DNA of 64,000 bases, taken from the sequence record OP172789. One strand, 5' to 3'. This DNA comes from Escherichia phage ECO71P1. This document shows positions 531 to 56,770 of the stretch, piece by piece; the stretch's first letter is position 1, and every line of letters starts with the position of its first letter. The notes under the pieces are model-generated. The model searched no databases. It was given only the letters and a program-made list of their open reading frames with translations, and was not told the DNA's origin. The position numbers were made by a program, and so were the translations under genes.

Positions 531-546
531 TTAACATTAATCACTA

Positions 547-2746: not shown

Positions 2747-3246
2747 TATTCCTCCACGACGCGATAGGCAATGATGTCATCTCCGCTTCCAACGTGCTTC
2801 CATCTTACTGATTGTGAGCCGTAACACCCGACGGACTTTATCCCGCTTCTCATTTTGTACTTGATAATCTTCCCAGGCACCGGATTCTCGCCTCCAGCCC
2901 ATTCAATCCAACCTTCATGAGACTCTTCGGACTTCTTCAAGTGATCGTACTTTTCACCAATGTGGGCAATTGGTTGGTTGCTGTTGTAAAAGAATCCAAG
3001 CGCAACATCGTAGCACGGATGACTATGAGAAAGACAGATGTCATCGCACCAAAGCTCCATGGTGCGCGACTTAAGGGTCATGATATTGGTATACCACTCG
3101 ATGGTGTAGTGGTCGTTAAGGTTGCCGACGATATAGAAGTTGCGACAAAAGTGCGCAGCATCGTCGGACTTCTCGCGGCGATAGCTTTTGATTGCGCCAG
3201 CCTTTACAGCCATTTCCAGTACTGCTTCGAGTTGTTCGATTTTCAT
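2746..3246 (-). CDS. hypothetical protein carrying one copy of the W-x-GGENP-x-PGK ... IIAYRVV module at its C-terminus
   Basis: Translation ends ...WIEWAGGENPVPGKIIKYKMRSG...GSGDDIIAYRVVEE, paralogous to the repeats in 996-1592. Confidence 0.55.
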   Translation of the reverse strand: MKIEQLEAVLEMAVKAGAIKSYRREKSDDAAHFCRNFYIVGNLNDHYTIEWYTNIMTLKSRTMELWCDDICLSHSHPCYDVALGFFYNSNQPIAHIGEKYDHLKKSEESHEGWIEWAGGENPVPGKIIKYKMRSGIKSVGCYGSQSVRWKHVGSGDDIIAYRVVEE

Positions 3247-3479
3247 TTCTTTACTCCGAGTTCAATTTGATAGCCGATTGACAATTCATTTTCGCCGATG
3301 TTGAATGCATCGACTGGCTGCGACATCACCGCTTTTAAATATACCTTCTTGCGTCGCTTCGCCTTGTACAAACAACGGTCGCCGCTGCGGTTGTAAATAT
3401 TAAGCCAGGTGCGTTTGCTAATCTTATACGGCACATGCGGCTTGATGAATAATAAACGGGCCTTAAGATTTGATGTCAT
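3243..3479 (-). CDS. hypothetical protein (78 aa)
   Basis: ORF track; overlaps neighbours by 4 nt. Confidence 0.4.
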   Translation of the reverse strand: MTSNLKARLLFIKPHVPYKISKRTWLNIYNRSGDRCLYKAKRRKKVYLKAVMSQPVDAFNIGENELSIGYQIELGVKK

Positions 3480-3771
3480 AATATTTACCTCCAGCCATAT
3501 TCTCTTTAATTTCTTTTAATGCCGTGCGACCTGCTTTTGTCATCACCACGGATGAATAGCGCGTCGGGTCTTTCTCTCCTGGCACCGCCCAATCAACAAG
3601 GCCCAACCGGAATAAGACAGGGATTGATGGCGCATTGATGTCGTGGAAAAGTGATGGCCGCTTTTCATAAGCCTTCTTGCGGTCGCCGCGCAGCATGTAT
3701 GGCGTTCCATCTCCCATCCTGTACAATGTTTGAATTTGCGCTAGGCTTAGTCTCATTGTTGTCTTCTCCAA
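3463..3771 (-). CDS. hypothetical protein (102 aa)
   Basis: ORF track. Confidence 0.45.
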   Translation of the reverse strand: MEKTTMRLSLAQIQTLYRMGDGTPYMLRGDRKKAYEKRPSLFHDINAPSIPVLFRLGLVDWAVPGEKDPTRYSSVVMTKAGRTALKEIKENMAGGKYYDIKS

Positions 3772-3938
3772 ACTGCGTGTAATGTTTTCTGGTCGAACTT
3801 GGACAGCGTTTCACGCTCCGATGCTTTAAGGAATCGCGTGCCAAAGAACAGCATCCCTTGCGGCGTTTTAACGAGAGACACGCCTTTGTTACGGTAAAAG
3901 CTTACCAAGGCTGATGCGTTGTGGACTTCGGTAATCAT
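3753..3938 (-). CDS. hypothetical small protein (start moved to internal ATG after AAGGAG RBS)
   Basis: The annotated 3998 start lies inside a sigma70-like promoter; AAGGAG at 3947-3952 precedes ATG at 3938. Confidence 0.4.
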   Translation of the reverse strand: MITEVHNASALVSFYRNKGVSLVKTPQGMLFFGTRFLKASERETLSKFDQKTLHAVWRRQQ

Positions 3939-3959
3939 AATCATTTCTCCTTTGCTTGA

Positions 3960-4013
3960 TGAACTAAGTATAATACAGGCAAATAAAAAGGCAAGCATTT
4001 AGCTCACCTTTTT
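3960..4013 (-). promoter_or_regulatory. early promoter: conserved 27-bp element AAAAGGTGAGCTAAATGCTTGCCTTTT (minus-strand sense), then -35 TTGCCT and -10 TATACT
   Basis: -35/-10 hexamers with 16-17 bp spacing read directly; same element repeated at 5221-5274. Confidence 0.55.
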
Positions 4014-4016
4014 GAA

Positions 4017-4277
4017 TCAAATCTTCTTCGCCTCTTCGTGGAGGCCGACTGACCTTAGTTTGCGTCGCAAGTAAGCTTTCTTCTCGCTCTCCCGTCCTGC
4101 TGGAGTGACGCGCCAGCGTAATGTGTTCTCCAAATTCTTGCGTCGGTTGTGCTCGTCGAGTAGCTCTACCAGTGCCTTTGCATCGTCGAGTGTTAACACC
4201 ACTGGCCGCGACCCATTAACGGCTTGTCGAAGCTTCCGCGCGGCAACGGCCAACTTAGTCATCGGACCCTTGTTCAC
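4017..4277 (-). CDS. hypothetical protein (86 aa, basic)
   Basis: ORF track. Confidence 0.45.
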   Translation of the reverse strand: MNKGPMTKLAVAARKLRQAVNGSRPVVLTLDDAKALVELLDEHNRRKNLENTLRWRVTPAGRESEKKAYLRRKLRSVGLHEEAKKI

Positions 4278-4666
4278 GGCAACTCCTTATTCATTGGCGT
4301 AATGGAAAGCACCTTCACTTCAGTGATGTCACGGTTATATTCGCGCTTGATTTGTAGAATCTGGGATTGGATGCGCGCGATAAAGTGCCACGTTATGCCT
4401 TCCTTAACGTTAATCCAGGCCGCAAGCTGCATCGAGTCAATGTCACTTCTCAATGTCATCGGTCTGTAAACAGCACTTGGTGCACCACTAGCACCGTAAG
4501 CCAGTTGCGCGTCATAAGCTGAATACTTGAATGACACCAGGAACATTCTTTCTTCAAGTTGACTCTCGCTATTAGGATTCTTATCACAATTAGCCATATG
4601 CTGCACGAACTCTTCATGCGGAAGATGCATCACATCGTGGCAATACGGACAACGTTTCATTCTCAT
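4274..4666 (-). CDS. hypothetical protein with N-terminal Cys/His cluster (CPYCH...H...H...C), possible zinc-binding
   Basis: ORF track; Cys/His spacing in translation. Confidence 0.45.
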   Translation of the reverse strand: MRMKRCPYCHDVMHLPHEEFVQHMANCDKNPNSESQLEERMFLVSFKYSAYDAQLAYGASGAPSAVYRPMTLRSDIDSMQLAAWINVKEGITWHFIARIQSQILQIKREYNRDITEVKVLSITPMNKELP

Positions 4667-4899
4667 TTTGCATACTCCATAGCATATTGCTGCAGCTTAA
4701 ACGCAGCCTTTTGTAATTGTTTGTGGCGTTCAAATAACGTCTCACGCTTTTCAGCATGGCAATCGGCGCGAAGCATTGTTATGGCAACGCTTGACATAGC
4801 ATTCAATAAAAACTGAAAACGAGACACCATGCGCAGCTCATTGCGCTTGTTGAAAGACAGCTTACCCAGCGCGGCATTCATAATTGCACCTCGACACAC
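4663..4899 (-). CDS. hypothetical protein (78 aa)
   Basis: ORF track. Confidence 0.4.
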   Translation of the reverse strand: MCRGAIMNAALGKLSFNKRNELRMVSRFQFLLNAMSSVAITMLRADCHAEKRETLFERHKQLQKAAFKLQQYAMEYAK

Positions 4900-5195
4900 G
4901 ATTCACTAGCCTTGAATCCCCAGCCTTCCAGACCGACTTCGCCGCAGCAGCGCACCTTTGCCCAACCAGTCATGAGCCATTGGCGATACTTTTCGAAGTA
5001 TGTTGGCTTTTCTGAATAACAATGAACAAGGCCGTCGTCATCAATGGCCACGTAACGCGTCCAAGGCGCAACGGGTACAACTACGTCGGGGTGCGACTCT
5101 GGCCAAGGCTTGATGTGTACAGCTGTGTTCAAGTCTACGTTTAACACGCTGCCTAACCGCTCGTCTTGTTCCTGGTCAATGCCTAAGTAAATCAT
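4878..5195 (-). CDS. hypothetical protein (105 aa)
   Basis: ORF track; GAGGTG RBS and the conserved promoter element upstream. Confidence 0.5.
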   Translation of the reverse strand: MIYLGIDQEQDERLGSVLNVDLNTAVHIKPWPESHPDVVVPVAPWTRYVAIDDDGLVHCYSEKPTYFEKYRQWLMTGWAKVRCCGEVGLEGWGFKASESCVEVQL

Positions 5196-5220
5196 AATTC
5201 ACCTCGCTTGTTAGTCTTGA

Positions 5221-5274
5221 TGAACAGAGTATAAGTATTGATAAAAGAAAAGGCAAGCATTTAGCTCACCTTTT
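5221..5274 (-). promoter_or_regulatory. early promoter, second copy of the conserved 27-bp element with -35 TTGCCT, 17-bp spacer, -10 TATACT
   Basis: Near-identical to 3987-4013; hexamers read directly. Confidence 0.55.
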
Positions 5275-5279
5275 GATAT

Positions 5280-5612
5280 TCATTTTACATAGTGGAGTAG
5301 GTCAATCTCTATCTCGTGCCTTGTCCTTGTTATCTTTGTATCGCCCGTCCGGTGGGTGACTTGAGAGAAGAAAGAGTCTTTGTGAGCACATCTTTCAAAC
5401 ATCACGCTGGCAAATCTGCAGCCGCATATTGCATCAAGTTTTGCTCCGTTAGACAAAAGGTTGAATGTCAATACAGTGTTATCCATCCTTGCATTTTGCT
5501 TGATGCAGGACTTTAAGAAGGCGTAAGAATCGGCAAATGATTTGTGCCTTTTACAAATATCTTTAACCTTTTCACGTTCATACGCGGCGAGTATCTGATC
5601 ACGGGTCATCAC
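5280..5612 (-). CDS. hypothetical protein (110 aa)
   Basis: ORF track. Confidence 0.45.
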   Translation of the reverse strand: MMTRDQILAAYEREKVKDICKRHKSFADSYAFLKSCIKQNARMDNTVLTFNLLSNGAKLDAICGCRFASVMFERCAHKDSFFSQVTHRTGDTKITRTRHEIEIDLLHYVK

Positions 5613-5845
5613 TGCACCTCTGTTATTCCGGTTATACGAACGATGACTGTGTCATCCAAATTAAACTGCTGCCGCGCAACGCGCTTGATGTCGTCCTTAA
5701 GGTCCGCAATCAACTCCCTTGTTAACACTGTACGCTCTGAGACGCCATATTGCACGTCAAAGGTATACTCGCCATAAAACACCGCGCCATTGGGAAGTTG
5801 CACGACATAGAATGCCATATACATGGCGTTGATATAATCTTCCAT
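5609..5845 (-). CDS. hypothetical protein (78 aa; start at internal ATG overlapping upstream stop as TAATG)
   Basis: The longer 5959 start would overlap the upstream gene by >100 nt in another frame; ATG at 5845 is coupled to the upstream stop. Confidence 0.4.
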   Translation of the reverse strand: MEDYINAMYMAFYVVQLPNGAVFYGEYTFDVQYGVSERTVLTRELIADLKDDIKRVARQQFNLDDTVIVRITGITEVQ

Positions 5846-6192
5846 TATACATTCTCCACGGGTCGACGAATGAGTTTGCGTAATCCTTCGGGCCAGACCT
5901 TCTTGATGACGGCCTTTGCTGGGCTGGATGAAAGCTTCTTCAGCTTCAATAGGACACAACCTTCATCATCGTTCGGTTGCACCTGGATAACGACTCGCGC
6001 TTGTCGGTCAATGACCATGACATCCCCAACGCGAATGTCTTTCACCAACACGCCCATCTCCTTCGTGCCGGATACGCCAATCACGTGGTCGCAACGGACT
6101 CGCGACGGTAGCAACGTGCCGCCTTCAGCCATCTCACGCACACGCTTCTTAATCTCTGCGCCATACAGCGTTTCATCTTTAACATGAGCCAT
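5845..6192 (-). CDS. hypothetical protein (start at ATG preceded by AAGGTA)
   Basis: ORF track with start adjusted to avoid overlap with 6179-6673. Confidence 0.4.
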   Translation of the reverse strand: MAHVKDETLYGAEIKKRVREMAEGGTLLPSRVRCDHVIGVSGTKEMGVLVKDIRVGDVMVIDRQARVVIQVQPNDDEGCVLLKLKKLSSSPAKAVIKKVWPEGLRKLIRRPVENV

Positions 6193-6673
6193 GTTCAAGT
6201 ACCTTATAGAATTTAGTGGTGAATCGCTCGTCGCCATAGTAGCGATAATTTCCGCCACCTGTGTGATCAAACCTTACCCATTGAATTAAAGTCTGGTCAG
6301 CGTCATGCGACACGTGAATCACTCGGCCATTAACAGGAATTGCACCCTCTTCCGCGTCCTTGCTTATGATTGAGTCGCCGTTCTTTATGTCAAATATGTC
6401 AATTGGCTTAAGGCGCGGCTTGTTATCAGCATAAGTTTTAATAGGTAAGGCAATGCAGCGAGAATTTGAATGATACACAGGTCTTGTTGCACCCTTGACG
6501 TTGCGCTTCAGCAATTCATCAATGGCATAGTCAACATCATCACTTTCAAACTCCTTCATGATGAAGTCTCTTACCCTTACACGAAGGTTGACATCTGCTT
6601 CTGCACGTCTCAATGCGTGTAAAATTTCTTTAGCTTCTTCTTTGTTTAACATTAAAGGGCGATGAATGATCAT
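6179..6673 (-). CDS. hypothetical protein (164 aa)
   Basis: ORF track. Confidence 0.5.
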   Translation of the reverse strand: MIIHRPLMLNKEEAKEILHALRRAEADVNLRVRVRDFIMKEFESDDVDYAIDELLKRNVKGATRPVYHSNSRCIALPIKTYADNKPRLKPIDIFDIKNGDSIISKDAEEGAIPVNGRVIHVSHDADQTLIQWVRFDHTGGGNYRYYGDERFTTKFYKVLEHGSC

Positions 6674-6827
6674 AATTAACCTCTGATTTGTGACACAAAA
6701 CGTTTATAATGTTCTTTGGCTAAGACGCGTGCACGCTCTTTCGTATGGCCACTGGCTTCGAGTACGCGACGAAGCTGCTTGATTGCGTCCGCTTTACTAA
6801 TCTTGTTATCGCTAAATTGATATTTAT

Positions 6828-7049
6828 TCATGCTTCACAAGCCGCCTTAATTTGACGTGGAGTAACGATGACCACTTCACCAACCAGTGACTTGTCGTCT
6901 TCTTTTACCGTGTCGATTCGAACGCGGTAATGATTGCGACCGCGCGAATCAGTAAGGTATTGATCCAGCTCAAGGATGGTGCCTGCGCGCATATTCTGTC
7001 CTGACATCCAACGGATGCGGTCCCCAGCCTTAAGAGTTTTCTTTCTCAT
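6828..7049 (-). CDS. hypothetical small protein (73 aa; internal start MRKKTLKAGD...)
   Basis: The N-terminal extension in the track overlaps the upstream gene; internal ATG at 7049 abuts the stop of 7057-7335. Confidence 0.4.
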   Translation of the reverse strand: MRKKTLKAGDRIRWMSGQNMRAGTILELDQYLTDSRGRNHYRVRIDTVKEDDKSLVGEVVIVTPRQIKAACEA

Positions 7050-7056
7050 CTTCAAC

Positions 7057-7335
7057 TCACTTATAGTATTTAAACATAGCCGCGCAAAAGTCTTGCATGG
7101 CATTCTTAATCTGCTTCTTGAACAACGGGTCATGCATCGTTTCAACATTCGTCTTAATCCGAACGTGACCGATAACATCAAACGCAGTCGCTGGCATCGG
7201 CTCATAGATTTCATGATCGTTCAAGATTATATCTAGTTTTGACTCAGAAATCACGGGATAATTCTTTCCAGCAGTAAACTGGTCATCAATCGATGACGTG
7301 CACTTGACAAAGAACACTTTGTATGTAGTAATCAT
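7057..7335 (-). CDS. hypothetical protein (92 aa)
   Basis: ORF track. Confidence 0.45.
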   Translation of the reverse strand: MITTYKVFFVKCTSSIDDQFTAGKNYPVISESKLDIILNDHEIYEPMPATAFDVIGHVRIKTNVETMHDPLFKKQIKNAMQDFCAAMFKYYK

Positions 7336-7541
7336 AGTGAGTCCTTCGGGCCGCAGTAGCGCCCGTCCAGGTAGCGGTCATATTGGATTAAGGCGAACGT
7401 TTTCAACGAAAGGTTACGGCGCTTAAACAGGTGACCCGTTGATGGATTCTGCTCGTGCGCCGTTGGATAAAGGCGTGACAGGTAGTGGATGAGGACTTGT
7501 AAAGCTCTACGTTGCTTTGTTATTCTCCCTTGTGTATTCAT
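7332..7541 (-). CDS. hypothetical protein (69 aa)
   Basis: ORF track; 4-nt overlap with downstream gene. Confidence 0.35.
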   Translation of the reverse strand: MNTQGRITKQRRALQVLIHYLSRLYPTAHEQNPSTGHLFKRRNLSLKTFALIQYDRYLDGRYCGPKDSL

Positions 7542-7770
7542 GGCTGAATCTACCCTCTGTCAATATCCGGTCGTGGATGACTATACCAGTGCAGCGCAGT
7601 CGGTTGGCATTGCTTCGCGCCTTTGCTGCTTGATGAGGATTGAACAAGCCAAACAAACTAGCCTTAAAAGCAAACTGGTAATATTTGATTAAGGTACTAA
7701 GTGCTAACTCAATCCTGTCTAAATTAATCATAATATCACCTCGTCAGAAAAGCAAATATTTTGATGATAA

Positions 7771-8418
7771 TTATCCTGTGGCCTGCATATTGCGTACATA
7801 CTTCTGCTCTAATGAATAGATGAAGTCGGCGACCGTCAATCCTTTGGTGTGCCACTCATACATTGTGTAGCCTGTATTCAGGAAATAGCCGCGCACCTTG
7901 TCCATTGCTTCAGATTCCTCCATGGAAGCCATCAGCGCGGCGACGTTATCATAAGAAGGCACAAATCCCTTCTTGCGTAGCGCATTGCGCAAATCTTTAG
8001 TTCTGAATCCAATCTTGCACAGGTCATCACGGCCCGTTGAAGATGCAACCTTCGGCAGCGCAAGGAACTCTTTGAGGAACATTGAGATGTTCAAGTCGCC
8101 TGCGTCATCAAGCTTCTGGAGTCGGTTGCGACCGCGACCCTTGAATTCACTCGCACGAGGGTGAGCACCAAAGCAGTGCGCCCCTTCCAGTTTTGGGTCG
8201 ATGATCATCAAATCTTTGCCTACGCGCAATTCAACATAGTAAAGGTATGTCTCATCGATAAGCTTCGTGCGCTTACAGTTGATGGAGTCCTTATCGTAAC
8301 CAAAACCACGCAACACGGTTGAAATCATCCGGTTCATTTCTTCTCCGTGAACGTCACTCTCTTTGTTCAGTTCACCAAGATGTTGAAAGAATTTAGCGAT
8401 GTTGATTGCTTTATTCAT
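7771..8418 (-). CDS. hypothetical protein (215 aa)
   Basis: ORF track; directly upstream of and overlapping the primase-helicase start. Confidence 0.5.
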   Translation of the reverse strand: MNKAINIAKFFQHLGELNKESDVHGEEMNRMISTVLRGFGYDKDSINCKRTKLIDETYLYYVELRVGKDLMIIDPKLEGAHCFGAHPRASEFKGRGRNRLQKLDDAGDLNISMFLKEFLALPKVASSTGRDDLCKIGFRTKDLRNALRKKGFVPSYDNVAALMASMEESEAMDKVRGYFLNTGYTMYEWHTKGLTVADFIYSLEQKYVRNMQATG

Positions 8419-10088
8419 CAGAATTCATCCTTATCTCTTCCTAAAGAACGTTTGCGTTCAATAACCTTCTTCAAGAATTCAATATCTTCAGGGTCAGATT
8501 CATCGCGGATAAGATACGCCAAAATAGTCATCAGGTCAGAAATGTATTCCCCTGCTTCATTCTTAATCAGCGGCGTAAAGTAACCACGCTGGTTGCGATA
8601 GGTTGCAGGCTCAAATCCAAGCTTCGACATGTGCGGCGCAAGGGTACGTGAGAAAGGCGACTTGCCGCACTTAGCTCTGAAGCCCATAGCGATTGCACCA
8701 CTAGTGATGTGCCAGCGTCCGCTGTGATGTCGGTCATAAGGCGCGGTGATGACGACTTCAACAAGGTCGTTGTCGACCATCTCGTCACGGATAACGCCGC
8801 GAGCACGTTCCATTTCGTTCTTGCTGAACTCAGTAAGCATGCGAGACGTTTCACCAACAAAAGCGTTGTAACCTGCTTCGCCGTGCTTCTCCATCCACGC
8901 AGCACACTCAGCCATCAACTGCCAAACATCTTCTTTCAAAGTGGAAAGGTCAGCTTGGAAGTCTTTCGACCAGTTCGGTTGCCCGTCCTTGTCTGCGAGT
9001 TGGCCAACAAAGATAGGATACACACGACGGTTGCCCGTATCGTCACGCTGCATGCCTGCGTATTCGTTGCCGTCCATGATAGCAATCCACTGGCGCGGTT
9101 TAACCTGCGTATCTTCAAATTTGAAGTCCAGGTCATCTTCCGTCTTAGTCAGGAATGCTTTCATGTTTTCGATGTCGGCCTTTTTAAAGCCTGTCATCTC
9201 GCCAACGTTCGCGATAATTGAGCGACCCGTAATAGCTCGCAAGAACGGGTTGAAGTTCTGCGCGGCCAAGTTCAACGGAATCGGTGTTGCGTGGCGGTCG
9301 TTCATAATAGCTTCGCAAAGCAGCTTACTGAAATAACTCTTCCCTGCGTTCTGGCCGCCGATGAGCGCAATGGAGATTGGCGCTTGACAGCCAGGGTTGG
9401 TCAGGCGGTTATAGAGCGATAGCCAAAAATACACACCGATTTGTCGGTTTAACTCTGTATCGAACGGTCGGAATAGCTCGATAAGGTATTTCTCAATGCG
9501 CGCAGTACCGTCCCATTCAGGCAGCTTCTTGTAGAAGAAGTCCATCAGGTCGTCGCGCTGATAACGCATGGCCCATTCCTTATAGGATTGAGCGACCTGA
9601 CGTGAGTTTGGGTTGGACAGGCCTGCTGCGTCGACAGCGGCAACTATCTCTGTGACTTCCAACGTCCGGTCGGTGAATGTTTCTCCGCGATGGTCGACTA
9701 AGCGTCCACGAAAAGTATCTTTGTGAGGGAATGGGACAATGCCGCTTCCCTTATCAAACAACGCGTCGAAAACCGCATAACGGTTCATGTCACTCGTCCG
9801 GTCCGCCTGAAGAACAAAATCATCTTTCGTCGGTTTGTAGTGAGGGAACTTGATTACCTGAAGTGAGGCGAGCAAACGTGCTCTTTCAACCAAGTCTTCT
9901 TCACCGTAGCACTCCATGCGCTCTGCATCTTTCTCAACAGCCTTATGCTGGAGGCTGATTTTAGCTCTGGTGCCTTGCTGCTCTGCCGCTTGCATCTCTT
10001 CTGAAACACCAGCGTCTTGAATTTCGTCAAAGGTTGCACCAAATTCATCACCTGTATCCTCTGGAAGATTGTCATGTTCAATTGACAT
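8418..10088 (-). CDS. DNA primase-helicase-like P-loop NTPase (VirE/D5 family-like)
   Basis: Walker A GGQNAGKS in the C-terminal half of a 556-aa protein; architecture typical of phage replicative primase-helicases. Confidence 0.7.
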   Translation of the reverse strand: MSIEHDNLPEDTGDEFGATFDEIQDAGVSEEMQAAEQQGTRAKISLQHKAVEKDAERMECYGEEDLVERARLLASLQVIKFPHYKPTKDDFVLQADRTSDMNRYAVFDALFDKGSGIVPFPHKDTFRGRLVDHRGETFTDRTLEVTEIVAAVDAAGLSNPNSRQVAQSYKEWAMRYQRDDLMDFFYKKLPEWDGTARIEKYLIELFRPFDTELNRQIGVYFWLSLYNRLTNPGCQAPISIALIGGQNAGKSYFSKLLCEAIMNDRHATPIPLNLAAQNFNPFLRAITGRSIIANVGEMTGFKKADIENMKAFLTKTEDDLDFKFEDTQVKPRQWIAIMDGNEYAGMQRDDTGNRRVYPIFVGQLADKDGQPNWSKDFQADLSTLKEDVWQLMAECAAWMEKHGEAGYNAFVGETSRMLTEFSKNEMERARGVIRDEMVDNDLVEVVITAPYDRHHSGRWHITSGAIAMGFRAKCGKSPFSRTLAPHMSKLGFEPATYRNQRGYFTPLIKNEAGEYISDLMTILAYLIRDESDPEDIEFLKKVIERKRSLGRDKDEF

Positions 10089-11397: not shown

Positions 11398-12480
11398 CTA
11401 TTTTATGCCACCTGCGCGACGATTTATCATATCAAGTTGATTCTCAATATAAGGCATTACTACTGCTTCGACAAAAGCGGTCCATCCTTTCTTGCCTTCC
11501 CCTTTCCGGTGACAGTCGTGAGCGCAACCGAAAACGAATTCATGTTCAGCGCCAGGGATTGGGCCGCGAAAATAAGCGCCGTATGGGTCGCCGTTGGTGT
11601 GCTCTTCACCCCAAGGACAGATGATGCGGCATTTACCTGACATGTTTTCAACCACATCGCCATCGGACCCTTCGCCCATCTTATTGCGCGCAAGGATTTG
11701 CTGGGCTATCTTATACCAAACAGCGTCATATTTGTATTCGTCAACGTCGATTTGAATTTCACGCTTTTGCGGCATAACGACGTGGAAACCGAAGGCTTGG
11801 CAAATCTCTTCGATTGTGTAGCGCAAAGAATAGTCTGCATGAACAAGTCGGCAGCGGAACGGGTCGCCGTTCTCATCGACATATTTATAGGGGCCGTCGT
11901 GAGTCACACGCTTATTGTTGATGCACCCAGGAACACGACCCACGCGTGTCACATCTTTAATCGTATTGTCGCCGCCCTTCTTGAGTACCATGTTTACGAA
12001 AGACCCAAGGAATGCTTTGAACTGAATAAGATGGTCAATCGGTTCTTTAAAGAAGTACCACAGCTGATGGTTGTTCGGTGAAGTCTCAACAATGACGGTG
12101 GGCTTCAGGCGCTCGAAAAAGAATTCCAAATCTAAATCGCCCTTTGACCCTTTACCGTGTCCGATGTCGTCGACCATCATCGCCATGCCATGACCGAAAG
12201 CCGATTCCGTGCGCCAGTATCGCATCTCGCCTGTCTTTGGGTTGGGAGACTTACGCATTGAACTTATGCAGGCGTAACCGTTCTGATGTTGCATCAGCGG
12301 CTTGCCAAGCTTCCAAGGCTTAGGCCAGAAGCTGCTGTTAATCTTTTTGCCGCGCTCGTCGGTCTGCACCGTTGCTTCAGGCGCAAACACTGTCATGACG
12401 CGTTCATCTTCTGGAATGCCTCTTTGGAGTTCCGTCAAAAACTCTTCGATTATTTTTGCTTCTTCTCTTAAACTAGCCAT
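11398..12480 (-). CDS. DNA primase-like protein (possible primase-polymerase type) with C-terminal Cys/His cluster
   Basis: 360-aa protein first in the minus-strand block, divergent from the replication block; VDDIGHGKGSKGD acidic motif and C...C...H...C...C.H cluster; assignment by motif resemblance only. Confidence 0.45.
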   Translation of the reverse strand: MASLREEAKIIEEFLTELQRGIPEDERVMTVFAPEATVQTDERGKKINSSFWPKPWKLGKPLMQHQNGYACISSMRKSPNPKTGEMRYWRTESAFGHGMAMMVDDIGHGKGSKGDLDLEFFFERLKPTVIVETSPNNHQLWYFFKEPIDHLIQFKAFLGSFVNMVLKKGGDNTIKDVTRVGRVPGCINNKRVTHDGPYKYVDENGDPFRCRLVHADYSLRYTIEEICQAFGFHVVMPQKREIQIDVDEYKYDAVWYKIAQQILARNKMGEGSDGDVVENMSGKCRIICPWGEEHTNGDPYGAYFRGPIPGAEHEFVFGCAHDCHRKGEGKKGWTAFVEAVVMPYIENQLDMINRRAGGIK

Positions 12481-14310: not shown

Positions 14311-15150
14311 ATGGCCGAAGCAATCAAAGTATTATCTAAAGAAGAAAAACAAGCAGCTGCAGCAGAACGTCGTCGCGTGGCTGAAGAAAAACGCCTGGCT
14401 AAAAAGAAAGAAGCCGAAGAAAAACGCCAGAAGCGTGAGCAGGAAAAACAAGCCAAGCGTGAAGAAGCTGCACTGAAACGCAAGCAGGCCGCTGATGAGA
14501 AAGCACAGAAACGTGCTGAAGAAGCAGCGAAGAAAGCCAAAGAGCGTGCAGAAAAAGCTGCTGCTAAGAAAGCAGAGCGTGAAGCCGCTAAAGCAGCAAA
14601 AGAAATCGAAAAGGCAAAGGCTAAAGAAGAAGCCAAGCGCCTGAAAGCTGAACAAGCTGCTGCTAAGAAAGCAGAGCGTGATCAAGCCCGTGCTGCAGCG
14701 AAGGCCGAAAAAGAGAAGGCCAAAGAAGAAGCTAAAGCGAAACGCAAGGCAGAGCGTGAAGCTGCTAAGATTGCGGCTAAAGAAGCTGCAGAAAAGCAGA
14801 AAGAACAGCGTAAGAAAGAAGCTGAAGAACGTCGCAAAGCCATCGCAGAACGTAAGGCTGCTAAAAAGGCAAACGGTCAGCGTCGTGCAAAAGCAACCCA
14901 CTTCATCTACACTGGCAATGGCCTGAGCCAGCCGCAAGAGCATTCCACCCGTGGACGCGTTCTGGCGGCGATCAAAGAAGGCGAAGTTGGCGTGGCGCAG
15001 TCTATCGATGAGCTGGGCGAAAAAGTTAAAGATCAACTGTTTGGCGCTTCCGTTCGCTCCTACCTGAGCAAGCTGGAAGAGATGGGCCACATCGAGTTTG
15101 TCGATGTTGAATCCAACGAAGATGCCGAAGACGGTGATCAAGCGGAATAA
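14311..15150 (+). CDS. Lys/Ala/Glu/Arg-rich low-complexity helical protein with C-terminal globular domain and acidic tail
   Basis: About 200 aa of KAEKAAAKKAEREA-type repeats (DNA-level direct repeats of gctgctaagaaagcagagcgtga), then ~70-aa non-repetitive domain ending EDAEDGDQAE; terminator follows. Confidence 0.7.
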   Translation: MAEAIKVLSKEEKQAAAAERRRVAEEKRLAKKKEAEEKRQKREQEKQAKREEAALKRKQAADEKAQKRAEEAAKKAKERAEKAAAKKAEREAAKAAKEIEKAKAKEEAKRLKAEQAAAKKAERDQARAAAKAEKEKAKEEAKAKRKAEREAAKIAAKEAAEKQKEQRKKEAEERRKAIAERKAAKKANGQRRAKATHFIYTGNGLSQPQEHSTRGRVLAAIKEGEVGVAQSIDELGEKVKDQLFGASVRSYLSKLEEMGHIEFVDVESNEDAEDGDQAE

Positions 15151-17577: not shown

Positions 17578-18446
17578 GTTTTAAAAATAACCAAATCTTG
17601 AACGTATTCGACCTTGACGGAACTCTGTTTGATGACCGTTGGCGCTTAGACCGCATCAAGATTGCAGGTCCGTTGTCAGACTATGATGACTATCACAGCG
17701 GTATTGGTTATGATCAGTTCTATCCTCACATTGCAGCAGCAGTAGAGTCAGCATCTCTTCGCGGTGAGGCGGTTGAATATTGGACTGCAAGGCCAGAAAA
17801 ATACAGACAAGTGACTTTTGAACGTCTGGACAATGTTTTTCCTTTTGATGAATTTACAATCAAGATGAGAGACTCTGGCGACAAACGTCCATCAACTATT
17901 ATGAAATCTGAATGGCTATCGCACGCTTTGCGGCACGGCGATTATCGAATCATCAATATATTCGACGACCGACAAGACGTACTCGCGCGGATGCAAGATG
18001 AAGCCTTGTATTATAATTCCGTTGCTCAAAATAAAATCGCTTTTACGTTTAATCTTTGCAAGGCAGGTGAAGTGGTGCAACAATTAGCAATTGATCCAAG
18101 CGCAACGGGGCAAGAAGAGACTAAGGCTGTGGAAATTGAACAATCTCCGGCAACCGCCGCCGATATTCTTGATGCGATGGCAGCAACCTTCCGTGAGCGC
18201 AACGCTGTCTATGGCGATAACGCTGTGATGGTAGGCCAGGTTATGCAGGTGCTTTTCCCTAATGGCGTAACGTTGAAAACGCCGGAAGACTACCACATGT
18301 GGCATCTGTTCGAGCTTAAGATTGTCAAGCTTACACGCTTTGCAATCAGCGGCCTGAAGCACGAAGACTCTATACACGACGATGGTGTTTACAGCGCCAT
18401 GTGTGAACGTCTTGTCAACACCCATAATATTAATTTCAATAAATAG
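17574..18446 (+). CDS. HAD-superfamily phosphatase domain fused to a C-terminal domain of unknown function
   Basis: N-terminal DLDGTL (HAD motif I); ATGA overlap with the ThyX-like gene. Confidence 0.55.
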   Translation: MSFKNNQILNVFDLDGTLFDDRWRLDRIKIAGPLSDYDDYHSGIGYDQFYPHIAAAVESASLRGEAVEYWTARPEKYRQVTFERLDNVFPFDEFTIKMRDSGDKRPSTIMKSEWLSHALRHGDYRIINIFDDRQDVLARMQDEALYYNSVAQNKIAFTFNLCKAGEVVQQLAIDPSATGQEETKAVEIEQSPATAADILDAMAATFRERNAVYGDNAVMVGQVMQVLFPNGVTLKTPEDYHMWHLFELKIVKLTRFAISGLKHEDSIHDDGVYSAMCERLVNTHNINFNK

Positions 18447-18484
18447 TTTACTTGTGCGTTTCGATGAGTTATATTTATCTCATC
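18447..18484 (+). promoter_or_regulatory. promoter (-35 TTTACT, 17 bp, -10 TATATT) with GATGAG/CTCATC dyad bracketing the -10, followed by CATCGAAACGAA leader
   Basis: Read directly; same architecture at 25423-25460. Confidence 0.45.
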
Positions 18485-18511
18485 GAAACGAAGTCCAAAA
18501 AGGATAAATAA

Positions 18512-23889: not shown

Positions 23890-25409
23890 AAACACAAGGG
23901 ATGCGCCACCAGCTTCTGGCGCTTGATAAAGCAGGCCGCAGAAAATACTTTGCCTATTTCATGGAACAGGGTCTTGGTAAAACTTGGACCGCTTTGGCAG
24001 AGTTTGAAAAGCACTTCGCCGCTGGCGCGTTCGATGCCATGGTCGTCATCGCTCCAAACGGTGTCCACTCAAACTGGATTCGTCGTGAAGCACCAGAACA
24101 CCTTTCCATCAAGTGGATTGGGCACTACTGGCGCGGCAATGACAAGATGAAGACTAAAAAGGGCAAGGCGCTTTGGGAGAAGATGTTTGCTGATCACTAC
24201 CCTGAAGGCGAAGTGCCTGCGCGCATCTTCTCATTCAACATTGATACCGTCAACACACCAGTCGGTTATCAACACATAGAGTCGGTCTTGAAGAAATACC
24301 GCTGCCTGATGATCATCGACGAATCAACGCGCATCAAGAATAACACAGCCAAACGCTCCATCAAGGTTGTGGAATTGGGACGGCTGGCAAAGGCCCGTCG
24401 AATCCTTTCCGGTACGCCGTTGCCGCGCTCGCCTGCGGATATTTACATGCAATACCACTTCCTTGAAGCAGGATTGCTCGGCACCAAATCATTCCGTGCC
24501 TTTAACTCTGAATTCACGGTGCTACTTGAAGCGCACGACCCAGAGATGCAAGCCATCCTCAAGAAAATCGGCGGCAATGGCTATGGGATTCCGCAAGTGC
24601 CGCGCAAAGACCAGTTTGGCCGACCGATGTACAAGAACCTTGACAAGCTTATCCGGCTGATGGAACCGCACTATTTTCGTGCAACAAAAGCAGAATACTT
24701 GCCTGACCTTCCAGAGAAGGTGTATAAGTTTATCGACTTCGAGTTGTCGCCTAAACAACGCGATGTTTACGATGAACTCAAGAATGAGTACAACTATTTG
24801 ATGGAATACAAGGGCGAAGAAGAAAACGTCAAGTTTGAGATGATCGCATCGCGCACCAAGATGAAGCAGGTTACATCCGGCTTTGTCAAGGTGTATGATG
24901 AGATGGTCTACATGGAAGACAACCCACGCTTCACGGCCTTTAAGGATTATGTGGAAGGGGTGTTGGAAGACGACCCAGAGCGCAAATTCATCGTTTGGGC
25001 CATCTTTAAGGAAGAGATGAACCAGATTAAGGAATGGCTTGAGTCTGAAGGCGTGGTCACTGGTGTATACAACGGTGAAACATCAAAAGAGCAGCGCGAG
25101 TTCTTGATTGATGACTTCCAGAAAAACACAGTCGCGAATGGTGGAACACAGGTATTGGTTTGCCACGCTGCAGCGGCAGGCATCGGCATCACACTTACCG
25201 CCGCTGACTTGGCAATCTATTATTCTTGCAACTATGACAATGAGTTGCGCAAGCAATCCGAAGACCGAAATCACCGCATCGGCACCAAATCAAGCGTGTT
25301 GTATGTTGATTTTATTGGTGTTGATACCATCGACGAAGAAATTCAGCGTTCACTCAGTATGAAGTCAATGCTTGCTGATCACATCCTCGACGGCAAAAAG
25401 ATGAATTAA
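23886..25409 (+). CDS. SNF2-family (SF2) helicase/ATPase
   Basis: Motif I GLGKTWTA, motif II IIDESTRIKN, C-terminal helicase domain. Confidence 0.8.
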   Translation: MKTQGMRHQLLALDKAGRRKYFAYFMEQGLGKTWTALAEFEKHFAAGAFDAMVVIAPNGVHSNWIRREAPEHLSIKWIGHYWRGNDKMKTKKGKALWEKMFADHYPEGEVPARIFSFNIDTVNTPVGYQHIESVLKKYRCLMIIDESTRIKNNTAKRSIKVVELGRLAKARRILSGTPLPRSPADIYMQYHFLEAGLLGTKSFRAFNSEFTVLLEAHDPEMQAILKKIGGNGYGIPQVPRKDQFGRPMYKNLDKLIRLMEPHYFRATKAEYLPDLPEKVYKFIDFELSPKQRDVYDELKNEYNYLMEYKGEEENVKFEMIASRTKMKQVTSGFVKVYDEMVYMEDNPRFTAFKDYVEGVLEDDPERKFIVWAIFKEEMNQIKEWLESEGVVTGVYNGETSKEQREFLIDDFQKNTVANGGTQVLVCHAAAAGIGITLTAADLAIYYSCNYDNELRKQSEDRNHRIGTKSSVLYVDFIGVDTIDEEIQRSLSMKSMLADHILDGKKMN

Positions 25410-25422
25410 TATCAAAAATAAT

Positions 25423-25460
25423 TTGACTTGTCAGGTAAGATGAGTCATAATTATTTCATC
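25423..25460 (+). promoter_or_regulatory. promoter (-35 TTGACT, 17 bp, -10 CATAAT) with GATGAG/TTCATC dyad around the -10 and CATCGAAACGAA leader
   Basis: Read directly. Confidence 0.5.
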
Positions 25461-25483
25461 GAAACGAAACAGAGGAATACAAA

Positions 25484-49848: not shown

Positions 49849-50487
49849 TTAACGAGTCAATTGTACAATGGTATAAGTGGAAGACTGGACGCTTGGGCCG
49901 GAAAGGGCAATAGTCGTCGGGTCAATCACAATACCGCCTGGGATGGCAACCATGCCAGTTGGCAATGAGCCAGTATAGGCGATAATTGCACCAATAGGCA
50001 AGTTGTTCGGGTTGTTACCGCTGGAAATGCCTTTAGGTACATAAGCAAGCAGGTCGCCATAGTTAAGCGTCTGCGGACTGGTGCTTGGGTTGAATACTTC
50101 AACTACGAGGCCCGTGCACATATCATAGAACTCGCCTTCGCTATATTGAGGCAGAACCATGCTGGCACCCAAAGGACCAGTAGAGTTGCCATACAGCGCG
50201 TAACGCTTGCTATTGCCGAGGATGCCGTAGTAGTTAGTGCCGCCCAGCTCAACTTCAAAGTCCTGCGCGCCCAAAGTTTTGGTTTGACCAGTACCCATTA
50301 AGGATACGTCAGTCTTAAAACCGAACACACGGCTGATGGCGTTTACGTTTGCGCCTTCGTTAGCGTTGGCAATTCGGCCTGGCTTCCCACGCTGTGGGCC
50401 GTCGCGAACGATGTCGCCAGGAAAGCCAGTTGTATATTGACGGCCTACACTAGTTTGGAAAGTCATGTTTATTCCCCTTTCAACCAA
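49849..50487 (-). CDS. head decoration/auxiliary capsid protein candidate
   Basis: Between scaffold-protease and major capsid genes. Confidence 0.4.
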   Translation of the reverse strand: MVERGINMTFQTSVGRQYTTGFPGDIVRDGPQRGKPGRIANANEGANVNAISRVFGFKTDVSLMGTGQTKTLGAQDFEVELGGTNYYGILGNSKRYALYGNSTGPLGASMVLPQYSEGEFYDMCTGLVVEVFNPSTSPQTLNYGDLLAYVPKGISSGNNPNNLPIGAIIAYTGSLPTGMVAIPGGIVIDPTTIALSGPSVQSSTYTIVQLTR

Positions 50488-51887
50488 GCTTCAAATGCTT
50501 CGTCAGTTGCTGCAGAATCCGCAGCGGCCTTTTGTTTTGCGACTACACGCTGTTTTTGACCGTGTTCAACGCCGCGCAGATAATTATCCACCACGTCAAA
50601 CTCAGCACCATCAACGCACTTCAAGCCTAACTTTTTAGCGCCATATTTCGCTACGGACTTGGAGTCCATAGTTGCATGATCAAAGGCACCAACAACTTTA
50701 GACAGGCGCTGGTAGAGGCTATTCTTACGAGCAGAATCAGCGTAGAAAGCAGCAACTGCTGAATCAGATGCCATTGAGTGTTCCCCTTTTGCTGGACCTG
50801 GCGACGCTTTCGCCGCTTTTGTCGGTTTGTCATCTTTTTCGACCGAAGCCCCCTTTACGTTGCTGTTTTGCAGGCCGCTAACCACATCTTCAGCTTTGTC
50901 GCAAGGTGATACATCTTCAGCCTTGACTTCAACTTCTTCGTCTTTGACTTCGGCTTCAACTTCTTCTTCATCACCTACCGCGCCACCTTTAAGTTTTGCA
51001 ATAAGTGCTTCGATTTGGCTGATCAGTTGCGGAAGCTCGCCGCCAGCGTGAGATTCAGTTTCAACTTCAAACTTCTCTTCACCTTCTGGAGTCTCTTCAG
51101 CTTCTGCTTTAACTTCTGGATCAACCATCACTTCTTCACGTTCTTCGGTTGAATCCTTCTCTTCTGCTTTCACTTCAACTTCGTCCTGATGAGCAGCTTC
51201 GGTGCTCTCTTCATTCAGAAATTGTTCGAGCGCAGGGATCAGTGATTTCAGCTGTTCAACAGCATTATCACGCGCTTTACCTTTTAACGGTTTTGGCATG
51301 TCTAAATCCTCGTTGGATGGTGTTACAGTCGTCAAACAAAGATGGTCAAAGCAACGACCATCCAGCACCCGTGCACCTGGTACTCGACCAACGTCCACGA
51401 GAGCAATGTGGTTGCCGCGAAGAGTTGTCTGTACCACTTCATACGGCTGCCCGTCAAACTCTCCAGACTGTATGATGAATTCACAGTCATAGCCCAAAGA
51501 CAAGTCAACCTTTCCAGAATCGATGGCCTTCTTCAGACGACGGCTAAAAACTTTAAGGTCGCCGCGCATCCATGGCTTGTCATAATAAACATTGCCAGTT
51601 AGAACGCCATCAACGCCATACTCTTCGGGTGCTGTGTTATCCTCATCACCTTCGAATCCAGAAAGCATTTCGTGATTGTCGATGAAAGGGATATTTTTGA
51701 ATGAATCTATCGCTTCGGGGTCTTTCACCGCTGACTCTGGGCGATAAACTTTTACGATGCGATTCGGATCACCATCAAGTCCAACCTGACCTGCAGAATA
51801 ATCAAAAATGCCAAATGACGAAATGGGACAACCCACAATCGTCAAGAATCCATTTTTGTCAATTTCGCGTGCCGTTTGCATTCGCAT
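50469..51887 (-). CDS. prohead protease-scaffold fusion protein candidate
   Basis: N-terminal ~200-aa globular domain followed by a long Glu/Lys-rich repetitive helical region (EVEVKAEEK ...) typical of scaffolds; immediately upstream of capsid genes. Confidence 0.55.
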   Translation of the reverse strand: MRMQTAREIDKNGFLTIVGCPISSFGIFDYSAGQVGLDGDPNRIVKVYRPESAVKDPEAIDSFKNIPFIDNHEMLSGFEGDEDNTAPEEYGVDGVLTGNVYYDKPWMRGDLKVFSRRLKKAIDSGKVDLSLGYDCEFIIQSGEFDGQPYEVVQTTLRGNHIALVDVGRVPGARVLDGRCFDHLCLTTVTPSNEDLDMPKPLKGKARDNAVEQLKSLIPALEQFLNEESTEAAHQDEVEVKAEEKDSTEEREEVMVDPEVKAEAEETPEGEEKFEVETESHAGGELPQLISQIEALIAKLKGGAVGDEEEVEAEVKDEEVEVKAEDVSPCDKAEDVVSGLQNSNVKGASVEKDDKPTKAAKASPGPAKGEHSMASDSAVAAFYADSARKNSLYQRLSKVVGAFDHATMDSKSVAKYGAKKLGLKCVDGAEFDVVDNYLRGVEHGQKQRVVAKQKAAADSAATDEAFEAWLKGE

Positions 51888-51994
51888 CCACCCTCAAATA
51901 AGTATTGTGTATTATATCTAATGAAAAAAACTTAGGCAAACAATAATTATGGTTTGAATATGTATAACAACCGATATAGCCGCGCCTTAATTAG

Positions 51995-52300
51995 TGTGAT
52001 ACGGATGATACGGATAAAATGAGGCGTATTTTTATCCGTATCGGTGTATAAGCCGCGCTATCACTGGTGTGCTACGGATGATACGGATGATACGGATACT
52101 TTTCATATATAAGAGTTTATAAAAAAATAAAATTAAATTAGATATATAATTTTAAATTAATTTATTTGAATTCCTATAAAGTATCGCGGCAACGCGTATC
52201 ATCCGTATCATCCGTAAGATTCTTTTGAAAACAACTACTTACTTGATACGGATGATACGTCATTATACGCGTAAAATCCTGCGGCAATCCATTGCCAGGC
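51995..52300. repeat. iteron region B: five clusters of the 9-bp unit CGTATCATC/GATGATACG in both orientations plus GCCGCG-containing boxes and an AT-rich tract
   Basis: Copies at 51998-52016 (inverted), 52033-52044, 52073-52100 (inverted, three units), 52195-52216 (direct), 52245-52261 (inverted). Confidence 0.8.
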
Positions 52301-52303
52301 GAT

Positions 52304-52441
52304 TCAGTGAATATTAAAAAGCACTCCAGCAACTAAAACGCCAATCAGCATCGAGTCGTAAACAGCCCATTTCCAAGAAAGCAAAGAGTTGCAATTAATA
52401 TTTCGCACTTTAACGTAACGTGACTGAATAATCTTTTGCAT
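52304..52441 (-). CDS. small membrane peptide (45 aa)
   Basis: AGAGGAAG RBS 8 nt upstream; C-terminal hydrophobic segment; abuts the iteron region; below the size cut-off of the ORF track. Confidence 0.35.
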   Translation of the reverse strand: MQKIIQSRYVKVRNINCNSLLSWKWAVYDSMLIGVLVAGVLFNIH

Positions 52442-52451
52442 AACTTCCTCT

Positions 52452-53372
52452 TTAGTTCAACTTAATTGCGGTGATCTGTCCGTAAACGGTAGATGTCAAT
52501 TCGTCTGTGCATTGATAGTTTAGATACACGTTGCCAGGCGCGGCAAGAGTAATTATCTTTGTTGGAATATTGCCGCCGAAACGACCTGCAGCCCGAATGC
52601 CAGCAGACATCGTGAATGCATCATCCGTAATATCTGAATTACTTGTTGACAATTTTACTGTAATTCCGGTATTCGCTTGAACTCCTTCTGTTGCGACAGT
52701 CAACTGACTTGCTGTCACAAGCCATTTCCCTGCAGGCAGGTTTAATGTTGCCAGATTCACCAGAGTTGTCGGAGGATTGCTTACACTATTGCTTGTGTTT
52801 TGCACATTGCTTGCAGCAGCATTAAGAACTCCAGAACCATCAATTGATAGTGTCGCTCCTACTTTTACGCCACCCAAGGTTGATGCTGATGCAATCGGTA
52901 ACGAGTATTGAGTAACACTAATTGTACCGTCACCTGCAACACTTATGCCACTTCCTATCTTGACGCCGCCGAGAACAGAAGCCGTTGCCGCTGGTAACGT
53001 GTATTGGTTGCCGCTGGATTTGACTACCTTAACGGCGACAGCATTCTTGGACCCTCCAGACTCCATGCCTATAATCACCGCTTCTCCAAAAGCGATGGTG
53101 ATTGTAGATGCAGTTAAACCAGTCTGCACGTCTGTTATGTCCATTTTGGGAACTGAAAGTGTCAGATTCGGCTTGCTGGTAGAATCGCCATCATTACCGA
53201 TCATAAAGAATTGGCCGACTGAATTGTATCCAGATGCCAATGGCGGACTCAATGGAACAATCAAATTTTTATCGGATGTAAATTCTGAAACAATCGCCAA
53301 ACCGTTCGCATATACAGCAGGTAATACTGGCGTTTGTCCAGATATAGGAAACGTGCTGATTGGTATCGTCAT
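52452..53372 (-). CDS. fibre-like protein with tail-fibre-type repeats, located inside the head module
   Basis: Repeats ATASVLGGVKIGSGISVAGDGTISV and STLGGVKVGATLSIDGSGVLN; start adjusted to ATG with GAGGT RBS. Confidence 0.55.
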   Translation of the reverse strand: MTIPISTFPISGQTPVLPAVYANGLAIVSEFTSDKNLIVPLSPPLASGYNSVGQFFMIGNDGDSTSKPNLTLSVPKMDITDVQTGLTASTITIAFGEAVIIGMESGGSKNAVAVKVVKSSGNQYTLPAATASVLGGVKIGSGISVAGDGTISVTQYSLPIASASTLGGVKVGATLSIDGSGVLNAAASNVQNTSNSVSNPPTTLVNLATLNLPAGKWLVTASQLTVATEGVQANTGITVKLSTSNSDITDDAFTMSAGIRAAGRFGGNIPTKIITLAAPGNVYLNYQCTDELTSTVYGQITAIKLN

Positions 53373-53379
53373 AATGACC

Positions 53380-54231
53380 TCAAATGATTGGTATTTTCCT
53401 GCACTTGCAGTGTATTGCCCATCCAGGAGGACCGATGTCACCCTTTTTGAACTTCAATTCTCCGCCAACTTCCCATAGGCGCTTGTCATCAAGTTTAAAT
53501 CTCATTCCGTCGACGTGTTCATGAGAGATTCGCGGCTCCTTTCCTGCTCCTGAGTGCGCCCATTCAAATTCTTCAACTCCATTCTGGCGCATCCTTTCAT
53601 CGCTTAGAACGCAATACAATTTGCTTGTCTGGTCTTTAGCGATTAAGTCGACTCTCTTTGCAGAGAAGTGTTTTACGTTTCGCAGCGCCGCCTGAATGCC
53701 TGACGTGCCTTGCTGGGCTGGGTCGGGCGAAGTCAGCGAAAGCATTACTGCTTCGTACACTCTGTTGTGAATATCCTCGCCGACCTTAGTCACTAGAGTC
53801 GTGTTAAACGTCTCGCTTGTTCTAAGAGTGTTCTCAACGAATTTGTTATATGTGGCCTTTGGCGCTTCTATGCCTGCGGACTTAAGGCTGGCGAATGTAG
53901 CAGAAGTAGCACCCTTTTCGACCGATTTGATAAAATCAGCGGCAATCTTTGACCCAACACGAGCAAACGCCCTTGCCCATTTCAGCTGCAGACGTTTCAT
54001 AAGAGTTTGGAATGTTGAATCAGCAGAGTCTTGCGCAAAGAACTTCTGCACCTGCTTCTTTTCAAGCCACTCTGAAATTCCTGCCTGATAGTCATCAATC
54101 ATCGCATAGCAAAGACCTTTCATCTCACGACGGTAGGCCATTGCAATAGCGTTTGATGGGATTATCGGACTGCCGCGCCCGATTCTATCGGGTGAGCGGC
54201 GTTCACGTTTTTTCGAAGCTTTAAAAGCCAT
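53380..54231 (-). CDS. head morphogenesis protein, Mu F / SPP1 gp7-like
   Basis: C-terminal HEHVDGMRF ... GPPGWAIHCKCR motif; directly after portal gene. Confidence 0.65.
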   Translation of the reverse strand: MAFKASKKRERRSPDRIGRGSPIIPSNAIAMAYRREMKGLCYAMIDDYQAGISEWLEKKQVQKFFAQDSADSTFQTLMKRLQLKWARAFARVGSKIAADFIKSVEKGATSATFASLKSAGIEAPKATYNKFVENTLRTSETFNTTLVTKVGEDIHNRVYEAVMLSLTSPDPAQQGTSGIQAALRNVKHFSAKRVDLIAKDQTSKLYCVLSDERMRQNGVEEFEWAHSGAGKEPRISHEHVDGMRFKLDDKRLWEVGGELKFKKGDIGPPGWAIHCKCRKIPII

Positions 54232-56608: not shown

Positions 56609-56770
56609 TGTTAACGCCACCTGACAGTGAAAGGGAATCAATCTATATTATAAATATTCATGTGTTTGTAAGCAAATGATATGTATGGTGATCATAAATA
56701 GTTCATAAAATATTTTGCTTTTGTATCATTTTGAGTTATATTTTAGTTAACCAAACGAAAGGAGATTGAA

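Follow-up and report, generated by a model that had tools for sequence, protein, structure and literature searches.

What is the function of a block of short repeats and extremely AT-rich DNA that interrupts the head genes of a virulent phage? The DNA analysed here (the window) is a 64,000-nt stretch of Escherichia phage ECO71P1 (OP172789), and the original prediction, made from its letters, was that about 400 bp of non-coding DNA within the morphogenesis operon might be a replication origin or, alternatively, a binding array for a phage regulator or a packaging site. The source phage belongs to Wifcevirus, a genus of E. coli myophages that are kin, at some distance, to the Pseudomonas PB1-like phages (Pbunavirus) (PMC11990801). 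Positions 51500-52800 share 94-99.7% identity with 28 Wifcevirus genomes (FEC19, ECML-117, WFH and TH35 among them), which are those of E. coli or Shigella myophages of 66-72 kb. The gap is real and measures 416 bp. On the minus strand, a 'head fibre' gene (52452-53441) is followed by a 45-aa open reading frame (ORF; 52304-52441), the gap, and the gene for the head maturation protease (50469-51887). We refer to the gap as module A and to a second copy at the start of the window as module B (Table 1); the window is in reverse complement relative to the phage WFH record. The C-terminal half of the 45-aa ORF product is hydrophobic, and the ORF has positional counterparts in Serratia phage MyoSmar (gp080), Pbunavirus elmo (elmo_18), Xanthomonas phage FoX7 and Pantoea phage PA1. 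A PHROGs search with this ORF gave no match; in vB_Eco4M-7 it is annotated with a transmembrane domain.

Table 1. Positions of the features of modules A and B and of the candidate replication genes in the 64,000-nt window.
Feature	Position	Strand	Basis or remark
Module B, right-hand part	1-290	-	remainder in terminal repeat past the window start
Module B AT-rich tract	1-100		
Genome terminus motif, cut between 65 and 66	61-73	-	AACTCC^ATTTT on the minus strand (caret, cut)
Module B iterons, two	111-134		
Module B box CCCAGTCGCGGCGCACCATAGA	149-170		identical in MyoSmar module B
Module B box ACGTCATTATACGC	207-220		
Module B box GCGGCAATCC	275-284		
G-poor, CA-rich tract flanking module B, 215 nt, 8.8% G	291-505	+	holds the lowest-G 200-nt stretch of the window
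Terminator hairpin ending the CA-rich tract	511-532		
VapE-like SF3 helicase, candidate iteron-binding initiator (Rep)	8418-10088	-	Pfam PF05272, E 1.6e-28
RepB-like DNA primase, upstream of helicase gene, like orientation	11398-12480	-	Pfam PF16793, E 1.6e-36
Module A, entire non-coding gap, 416 bp	51888-52303	-	ORF list and sequence
Sigma-70-like promoter TTGCCT-17-TATAAT	51911-51939	-	promoter scan, 10/12 matches
GCCGCG box ahead of iteron cluster 1	51978-51984		
Iteron cluster 1, 2 tandem 9-bp units GATACGGAT	51997-52015	-	unit search, repeat family D4
Iteron cluster 2, one unit ATCCGTATC	52034-52042	+	
GCCGCG box at iteron cluster 3	52051-52057		
Iteron cluster 3, 3 tandem units, left arm of 22-nt inverted repeat	52071-52099	-	pair I9
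AT-rich centre, 8.6% GC, putative DNA-unwinding element	52100-52180	.	
TATAAAGTAT-CGCGGC, ahead of iteron cluster 4	52176-52190		
Iteron cluster 4, 2-3 tandem units, right inverted-repeat arm	52195-52216	+	I9, D8
Iteron cluster 5 (52245-52260) and ACGTCATTATACGC box	52245-52270	-	
GCGGCAATCC box after iteron cluster 5	52281-52290		

The anatomy of module A is as had been described from the letters, with each of the listed items found at the coordinates given. Counted in the ATCCGTATC register, the 9-bp unit forms five clusters in direct and inverted orientation between 51997 and 52260. Exact copies of CGTATCATC occur eight times in the 64-kb window against an expectation of 0.33, a number reached in 0 of 100 shuffles, and all eight lie either at 111-128 or at 52004-52259. 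A perfect 22-nt inverted repeat has its arms at 52073-52094 and 52195-52216 with a spacer of 100 nt (pair I9), and at least two tandem iterons stand on each side of the AT-rich centre in inverted orientation. The AT-rich tract of about 80 bp that had been noted there has the lowest GC content of any 80-nt stretch in the window, and the runner-up (2-81) is within module B. Folding of module A as single-stranded DNA gave z = -6.7. A search of Rfam with both modules returned no match at the gathering score, and the sub-threshold matches, all of hairpin type, are attributable to the long inverted repeat. The GCCGCG-containing boxes are present as well, but GCGGC/GCCGC pentamers are not enriched (4 in module A versus 4.6 per kb genome-wide), which rules them out as an independent signal; they matter only because their positions beside the iterons are kept in both copies. 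A DnaA-box reading of TTATCCGTA was dropped by eye, as it departs from the core of TTATCCACA at two positions.

The diverged second copy at the start of the window also proved to be genuine. Positions 77-135 align with 52161-52219 over 59 nt at 85% identity (family D8), including a 42-nt core in which 40 of 42 positions are identical, and the ACGTCATTATACGC and GCGGCAATCC boxes are shared by the two modules. Module A itself is 94.6-100% identical in 28 of 28 Wifcevirus records. In a six-genome Wifcevirus alignment, columns 1-300 are almost invariant and the AT-rich centre is 100% invariant, and the sole change in repeat length is in Bas101, which lacks exactly one 9-bp unit at cluster 4. The loss of precisely one unit argues that the 9-mer is a real unit. 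As judged from these alignments, the non-coding DNA of module A is under strong purifying selection. To look for satellites or prophages that borrow the site, we searched IMG/VR with the 22-mer arm, which recovered Wifcevirus contigs only, and 5,426 complete E. coli genomes with module A, in which no matches were found.

More distant relatives retain the arrangement with different repeats. The two-module layout is found in four genera (Wifcevirus, Myosmarvirus, Pbunavirus and Kylevirus), the proteins of which are only about 45-57% identical, in which module A precedes the head protease gene and module B the small-terminase gene. MyoSmar and elmo have a gap of 470-510 bp at the same site, from the small ORF to the protease gene, and the comparable gap in PA1 (Kylevirus) is ~460 bp. 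In all three phages, the iterons lie in opposed arms around an AT-rich centre, as they do in module A, and the iteron of module A recurs at one other place only, which is module B ahead of the small-terminase gene. The alignment of A with B is collinear in each of the three genera in which the two were compared, and in MyoSmar the paralogy runs on through the promoter. The protease-gene promoter is at an equal position, with a TATAATAC motif, in MyoSmar, elmo and PA1. The iteron is characteristic of the genus (CGTATCATC in Wifcevirus, ACTTTTCGTTTT in MyoSmar, GGTAATTTGG in Pbunavirus and ATAACCGTT in Pantoea phage PA1), and within each genome one iteron is common to A and B. Thus, one protein must read both modules, and its specificity must have shifted between lineages. 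Five metagenomic relatives (L020-L024) have a module B of 630-1,010 bp ahead of a 160-aa small-terminase-like gene; four of them have a module B iteron of their own and the fifth, L020, retains the Wifcevirus core, and there are eight distinct iterons across the nine lineages. In eight of the nine, the small-terminase gene directly follows module B. In FoX7 (Carpasinavirus) we found module B only and no module A, which indicates that this phage group can do without the second copy.

A candidate for the protein that reads the iterons is the VapE-like SF3 helicase. Its only sequence match among solved structures is DNA-bound SaPI1 Rep1 (PDB 7PDS, E 4e-11). An AlphaFold model of the helicase (pLDDT 86.7) has a winged-helix topology at residues 436-504 (helix-strand-helix-helix-hairpin), and its best match in Foldseek is again 7PDS, which it matches along its full length (E 4e-16 over ~480 columns), far above the NrS-1 helicase and the poxvirus D5/E5 helicases. 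Across the nine lineages, the helicase core is 40-60% identical and the C-terminal domain 20-40% identical, and Wifcevirus and L020, the only two lineages whose iterons are related, show the highest C-terminal domain identity (55%). The iteron and the helicase C-terminal domain appear to vary together between relatives, which is a correlation and not proof. In every lineage, L020-L024 included, the primase gene precedes that of the helicase, and module B is directly downstream of the helicase gene in MyoSmar, Pbunavirus elmo, FoX7 and L024; in L020-L023 and in the window, module B and the helicase gene are 0.7-8 kb apart. Module A never adjoins the helicase gene in the lineages examined. The helicase gene of the window phage is ~8 kb from module B and ~42 kb from module A, so the rule that places an origin next to rep does not hold in this phage.

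The SaPI Rep proteins are initiator-helicases in which a C-terminal winged helix reads the iterons, and the SaPI origin is just downstream of rep and consists of 6-12 iterons that flank an AT-rich centre, two or more to a side and oppositely oriented (PMC9371898). The order of the SaPI modules is pri-rep-ori (Rep1/PriRep5), with the primase gene upstream, and iteron specificity differs between relatives (PMC9371898). The window phage likewise encodes an SF3 helicase with a predicted C-terminal winged helix, for which SaPI1 Rep1 is the best match by both sequence and fold, and modules A and B are likewise made of iterons split around an AT-rich centre, at least two to a side and opposed. With module B as the origin, the order pri-rep-ori is found in MyoSmar, Pbunavirus, FoX7 and L024. 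The window phage differs from the SaPIs, however, in that it is a virulent 68-kb myophage rather than a satellite, its units are 9 bp in tight tandem whereas those of the SaPIs are 5-6 bp, and its origin-like module is duplicated, with one copy containing the genome terminus and neither copy adjoining the helicase gene.

In the explanation that we favour, module A combines a duplicated Rep-type replication origin with a sigma-70-like promoter that comes after it, and we assign this a probability of roughly 0.55. The promoter for the protease-scaffold-capsid genes is within the last ~60 nt of module A, ~25 nt 5' of the protease ATG, and the region would therefore be an origin plus a promoter. 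We infer that the helicase binds to these repeats and that replication starts at module A. Module B would be the ancestral origin, sited between the primase and helicase genes and the small-terminase gene, and module A its duplicate. The winged-helix C-terminal domain of the VapE-like helicase would bind the 9-bp iterons on either side of the 81-nt, 8.6%-GC centre, and helicase rings may then form on both arms, melt the AT-rich centre and self-load, as SaPI Rep proteins do, after which the RepB-like primase would prime synthesis. In phages that bear a terminal repeat, module B would also house the terminase cut site and the small-terminase promoter. An origin is the best supported of the three roles put forward in the original prediction, with the primase, the SaPI Rep-like helicase and its fast-evolving winged-helix domain, and the co-variation of the iterons in its favour, although no switch in GC skew marks the site. 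GC skew across the whole window tracks gene orientation without a switch at 52.1 kb, and it thus speaks neither for nor against an origin.

The kind of element proposed here, an iteron-containing origin read by an SF3 initiator-helicase, is already known, and there are precedents for two copies in P4 ori and crr and in SPP1 oriL and oriR. The ori and crr of P4 are separate iteron loci several kb apart that have one common repeat and are bound by the alpha primase-helicase, an SF3 protein in which primase and helicase are fused and in which a winged-helix C-terminal domain binds both loci. P4 crr is an auxiliary element 4.5 kb from ori, whereas the copies in the window phage are ~16 kb (or 52 kb) apart and each has its own AT-rich centre. 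SPP1, a virulent Bacillus phage, has two origins with the same initiator-binding repeats and an AT-rich region, and one of them is among late genes. The initiator of SPP1, G38P, does not belong to the SF3 helicases and requires a separate loader and helicase, and neither SPP1 origin is known to coincide with the packaging cut.

An alternative role for the iterons is in packaging, where they would be recognition sites for the terminase (the small subunit or the holoenzyme), with module B as the packaging start and module A as a second, uncut binding site that may serve, for example, in two-site synapsis or in titration of the small terminase. We consider this explanation unlikely for the pair of modules. 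In P1 pac and in SPP1 pacL-pacC-pacR, repeats flank the cut, and module B resembles these sites in having repeats on both sides of a precise cut and in adjoining the small-terminase gene. The cut, which is the left boundary of a direct terminal repeat of 3.5-3.8 kb, falls between window positions 65 and 66, in the AT-rich centre of module B, as mapped from the records of WFH, Mansfield, WFC and Ro157lw. Direct terminal repeats were reported for WFC and WFH (PMC6563267); in the WFH record the repeat is 3,701 bp (1-3701 = 67583-71283) and its left boundary maps to the cut, and the Mansfield record, which was opened at the repeat boundary given by PhageTerm (PMC6753283), has its end at window position 66. 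WFC, with a repeat of 3,784 bp, and Ro157lw, with one of 3,533 bp, have the identical junction, AATTAACTCC followed at the cut by ATTTT(G/A)AA, and the flanks of the two differ. The repeat boundary annotated with PhageTerm in MyoSmar (3559) is between the iteron arms of its module B. Of the genes in the terminal repeat, the first lies just outside the window; its product is homologous to the small terminase of E217 (PDB 7UXE, E 1.6e-32), and the gene starts about 300-360 nt past the terminus. As module B carries the exact left end of the terminal repeat, a packaging role for module B is likely, and because this copy contains the physical genome end and adjoins the small-terminase gene, the suggestion of a packaging site was partly correct there.

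The same cannot be said of module A. The cut motif AAAATGGAGTTAA occurs once in the window, at module B, and was not found in 51888-52303, nor does any record open at module A, which argues that module A is not a second genome end. The neighbours of module A are the 45-aa ORF and the protease gene rather than a small-terminase gene, and in a phage with fixed ends a second active start is judged to yield genomes of less than full length. The repeats vary with the helicase C-terminal domain and not with the N-terminal domain of the small terminase, which diverges no faster than the rest of the protein and is 61% identical between L021 and L023, the iterons of which are unrelated. Moreover, the E217 small terminase showed no appreciable DNA binding in vitro (PMC9611059), and the Pbunavirus phages are reported to package by headful without fixed ends, yet they have kept both modules (PMC12390725, PMC12345254).

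It is conceivable, although in our estimation distinctly unlikely, that the two functions are joined at module B, such that terminase cuts in the very element at which a Rep-type origin is unwound and the left end of the repeat arises within origin B. If origin B fired through the repeat in a Rep-dependent manner, this would provide the additional repeat copy that each packaged genome needs, and replication initiation would be physically tied to end formation and packaging. Module A would in that case be an ordinary copy of the same origin that is independent of packaging. The location of a fixed genome end within an origin-like element may also be relevant to the duplication of long terminal repeats.

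Several minor features were noted around the genome end. The first ~53 codons of WFH gp001 (202-360), MyoSmar gp007 (3497-3862) and elmo_73 (24412-25065) overlie module B, and WFC and Ro157lw are annotated with a small terminase that starts from position ~360; the database ORFs that are annotated over module B are probably not genes. A PHROGs scan of ten small ORFs at 56.7-63.6 kb for a small terminase or a DNA-binding protein assigned no annotated function. The other boundary of the terminal repeat (WFH 3701) is without iterons and is followed, outside the window, by two copies of AAATTTGCAGTACACT (3724-3739 and 3821-3836), and this pair may signal the terminating cut. The ~330 nt before the terminus, which form the unique-side arm of module B, differ sharply among Wifcevirus strains, and in WFC and Ro157lw this arm resembles the far-left arm of module A (TACGGATGATACGGATAAAA), a likeness that suggests exchange between the modules. 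The CA-rich tract that flanks module B has a counterpart by composition beside module B in every lineage examined, MyoSmar, elmo, FoX7 and L021-L024 among them, with CAACCCC-type repeats in the FoX7 version, and in elmo and L021-L024 a GT-rich tract mirrors it across module B. The tract could be a Rho-utilisation-like feature or one that favours single-strand binding.

A further possibility is a regulatory array, in which the iterons serve as operators or enhancer-like sites and a lineage-specific phage transcription factor acts through them to time two strong sigma-70-like promoters, one for the small-terminase gene and the other for the protease-scaffold-capsid genes, with the AT-rich centre as bent or silenced DNA. 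A near-consensus promoter is present within 150-300 nt after each module in the same orientation, that of module B being TTGAAC-17-TATAAT at WFH ~279-307, ahead of the small-terminase gene. The strength of these promoters is what makes a purely regulatory role possible; the extension of the A-B paralogy through the promoter in MyoSmar is in keeping with such a role, as is the fact that the genes downstream of both modules are late genes. Against it, the protease gene of FoX7 is driven from a short terminator-promoter gap without iterons, and the portal, large-terminase and tail operons, which are also late operons of the window, are without such arrays, the exact units being restricted to A and B. 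An 81-nt tract of such low GC content bracketed by inverted tandem repeats would also be unusual for an operator, and our analysis turned up no candidate regulator that varies from lineage to lineage in step with the iterons, a pattern that the helicase C-terminal domain does show. We regard a regulatory array as improbable. Finally, modules A and B are clearly paralogous and could in principle have been left over, without a function, from a segmental duplication of the region at the genome end, but we give this next to no weight, as neutral DNA would not be expected to remain near-invariant across a genus or to be kept in four genera with such divergent proteins while its iterons were replaced in step at both copies, and neutral duplication is effectively refuted by this conservation and co-variation.

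A duplicated Rep-type origin would fill a gap in what is known of the PB1-like group (Pbunavirus, Wifcevirus and relatives), for which replication origins and packaging signals have so far been undefined. A search of the literature on PB1-like phages, Pbunavirus and Wifcevirus for accounts of iterons or a replication origin found no description of the element, and the origin of Pbunavirus has been placed by GC skew in the region of the replication genes (PMC12390725). The group includes Pseudomonas phages that are among those most used in personalised therapy, and very fast replication has been reported for Wifcevirus (PMC11990801), which the two modules may help to account for. Our analysis yields two DNA elements that can be tested, a candidate SaPI Rep-like initiator and an exact cut motif for the genome end, and it would probably be wise not to disturb either the iteron modules or the cut site when such genomes are rebooted or engineered.

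Additional observations concern other parts of the window. About 8 kb of small minus-strand genes (547-8418) lie between the helicase gene and module B in Wifcevirus, and the number of genes in this slot ranges from none (MyoSmar, elmo, FoX7 and L024) to sixteen (L023). The slot thus resembles an insertion hot spot for accessory genes, unlike the interval from module B to the small-terminase gene, which almost never takes up an insertion. Repeat families D2 and D11 (1003-1355 and 2750-2916) point to a set of three small paralogues in the accessory region. A 64-nt promoter-like element (TTTACT/TTGACT ... TATATT/TATAAT) is present in three copies (18429-18492, 25405-25468 and 56696-56759), and the two copies upstream of replication genes contain the inverted repeat TTTCGATGAG...CTCATCGAAA; these elements are probably a class of co-regulated early or middle promoters. 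A gene that is annotated as TolA-like in FEC19 contains, at 14548-14879, coding repeats of 99 bp in tandem that are rich in AAGAAAGCAGAGCGTGA.
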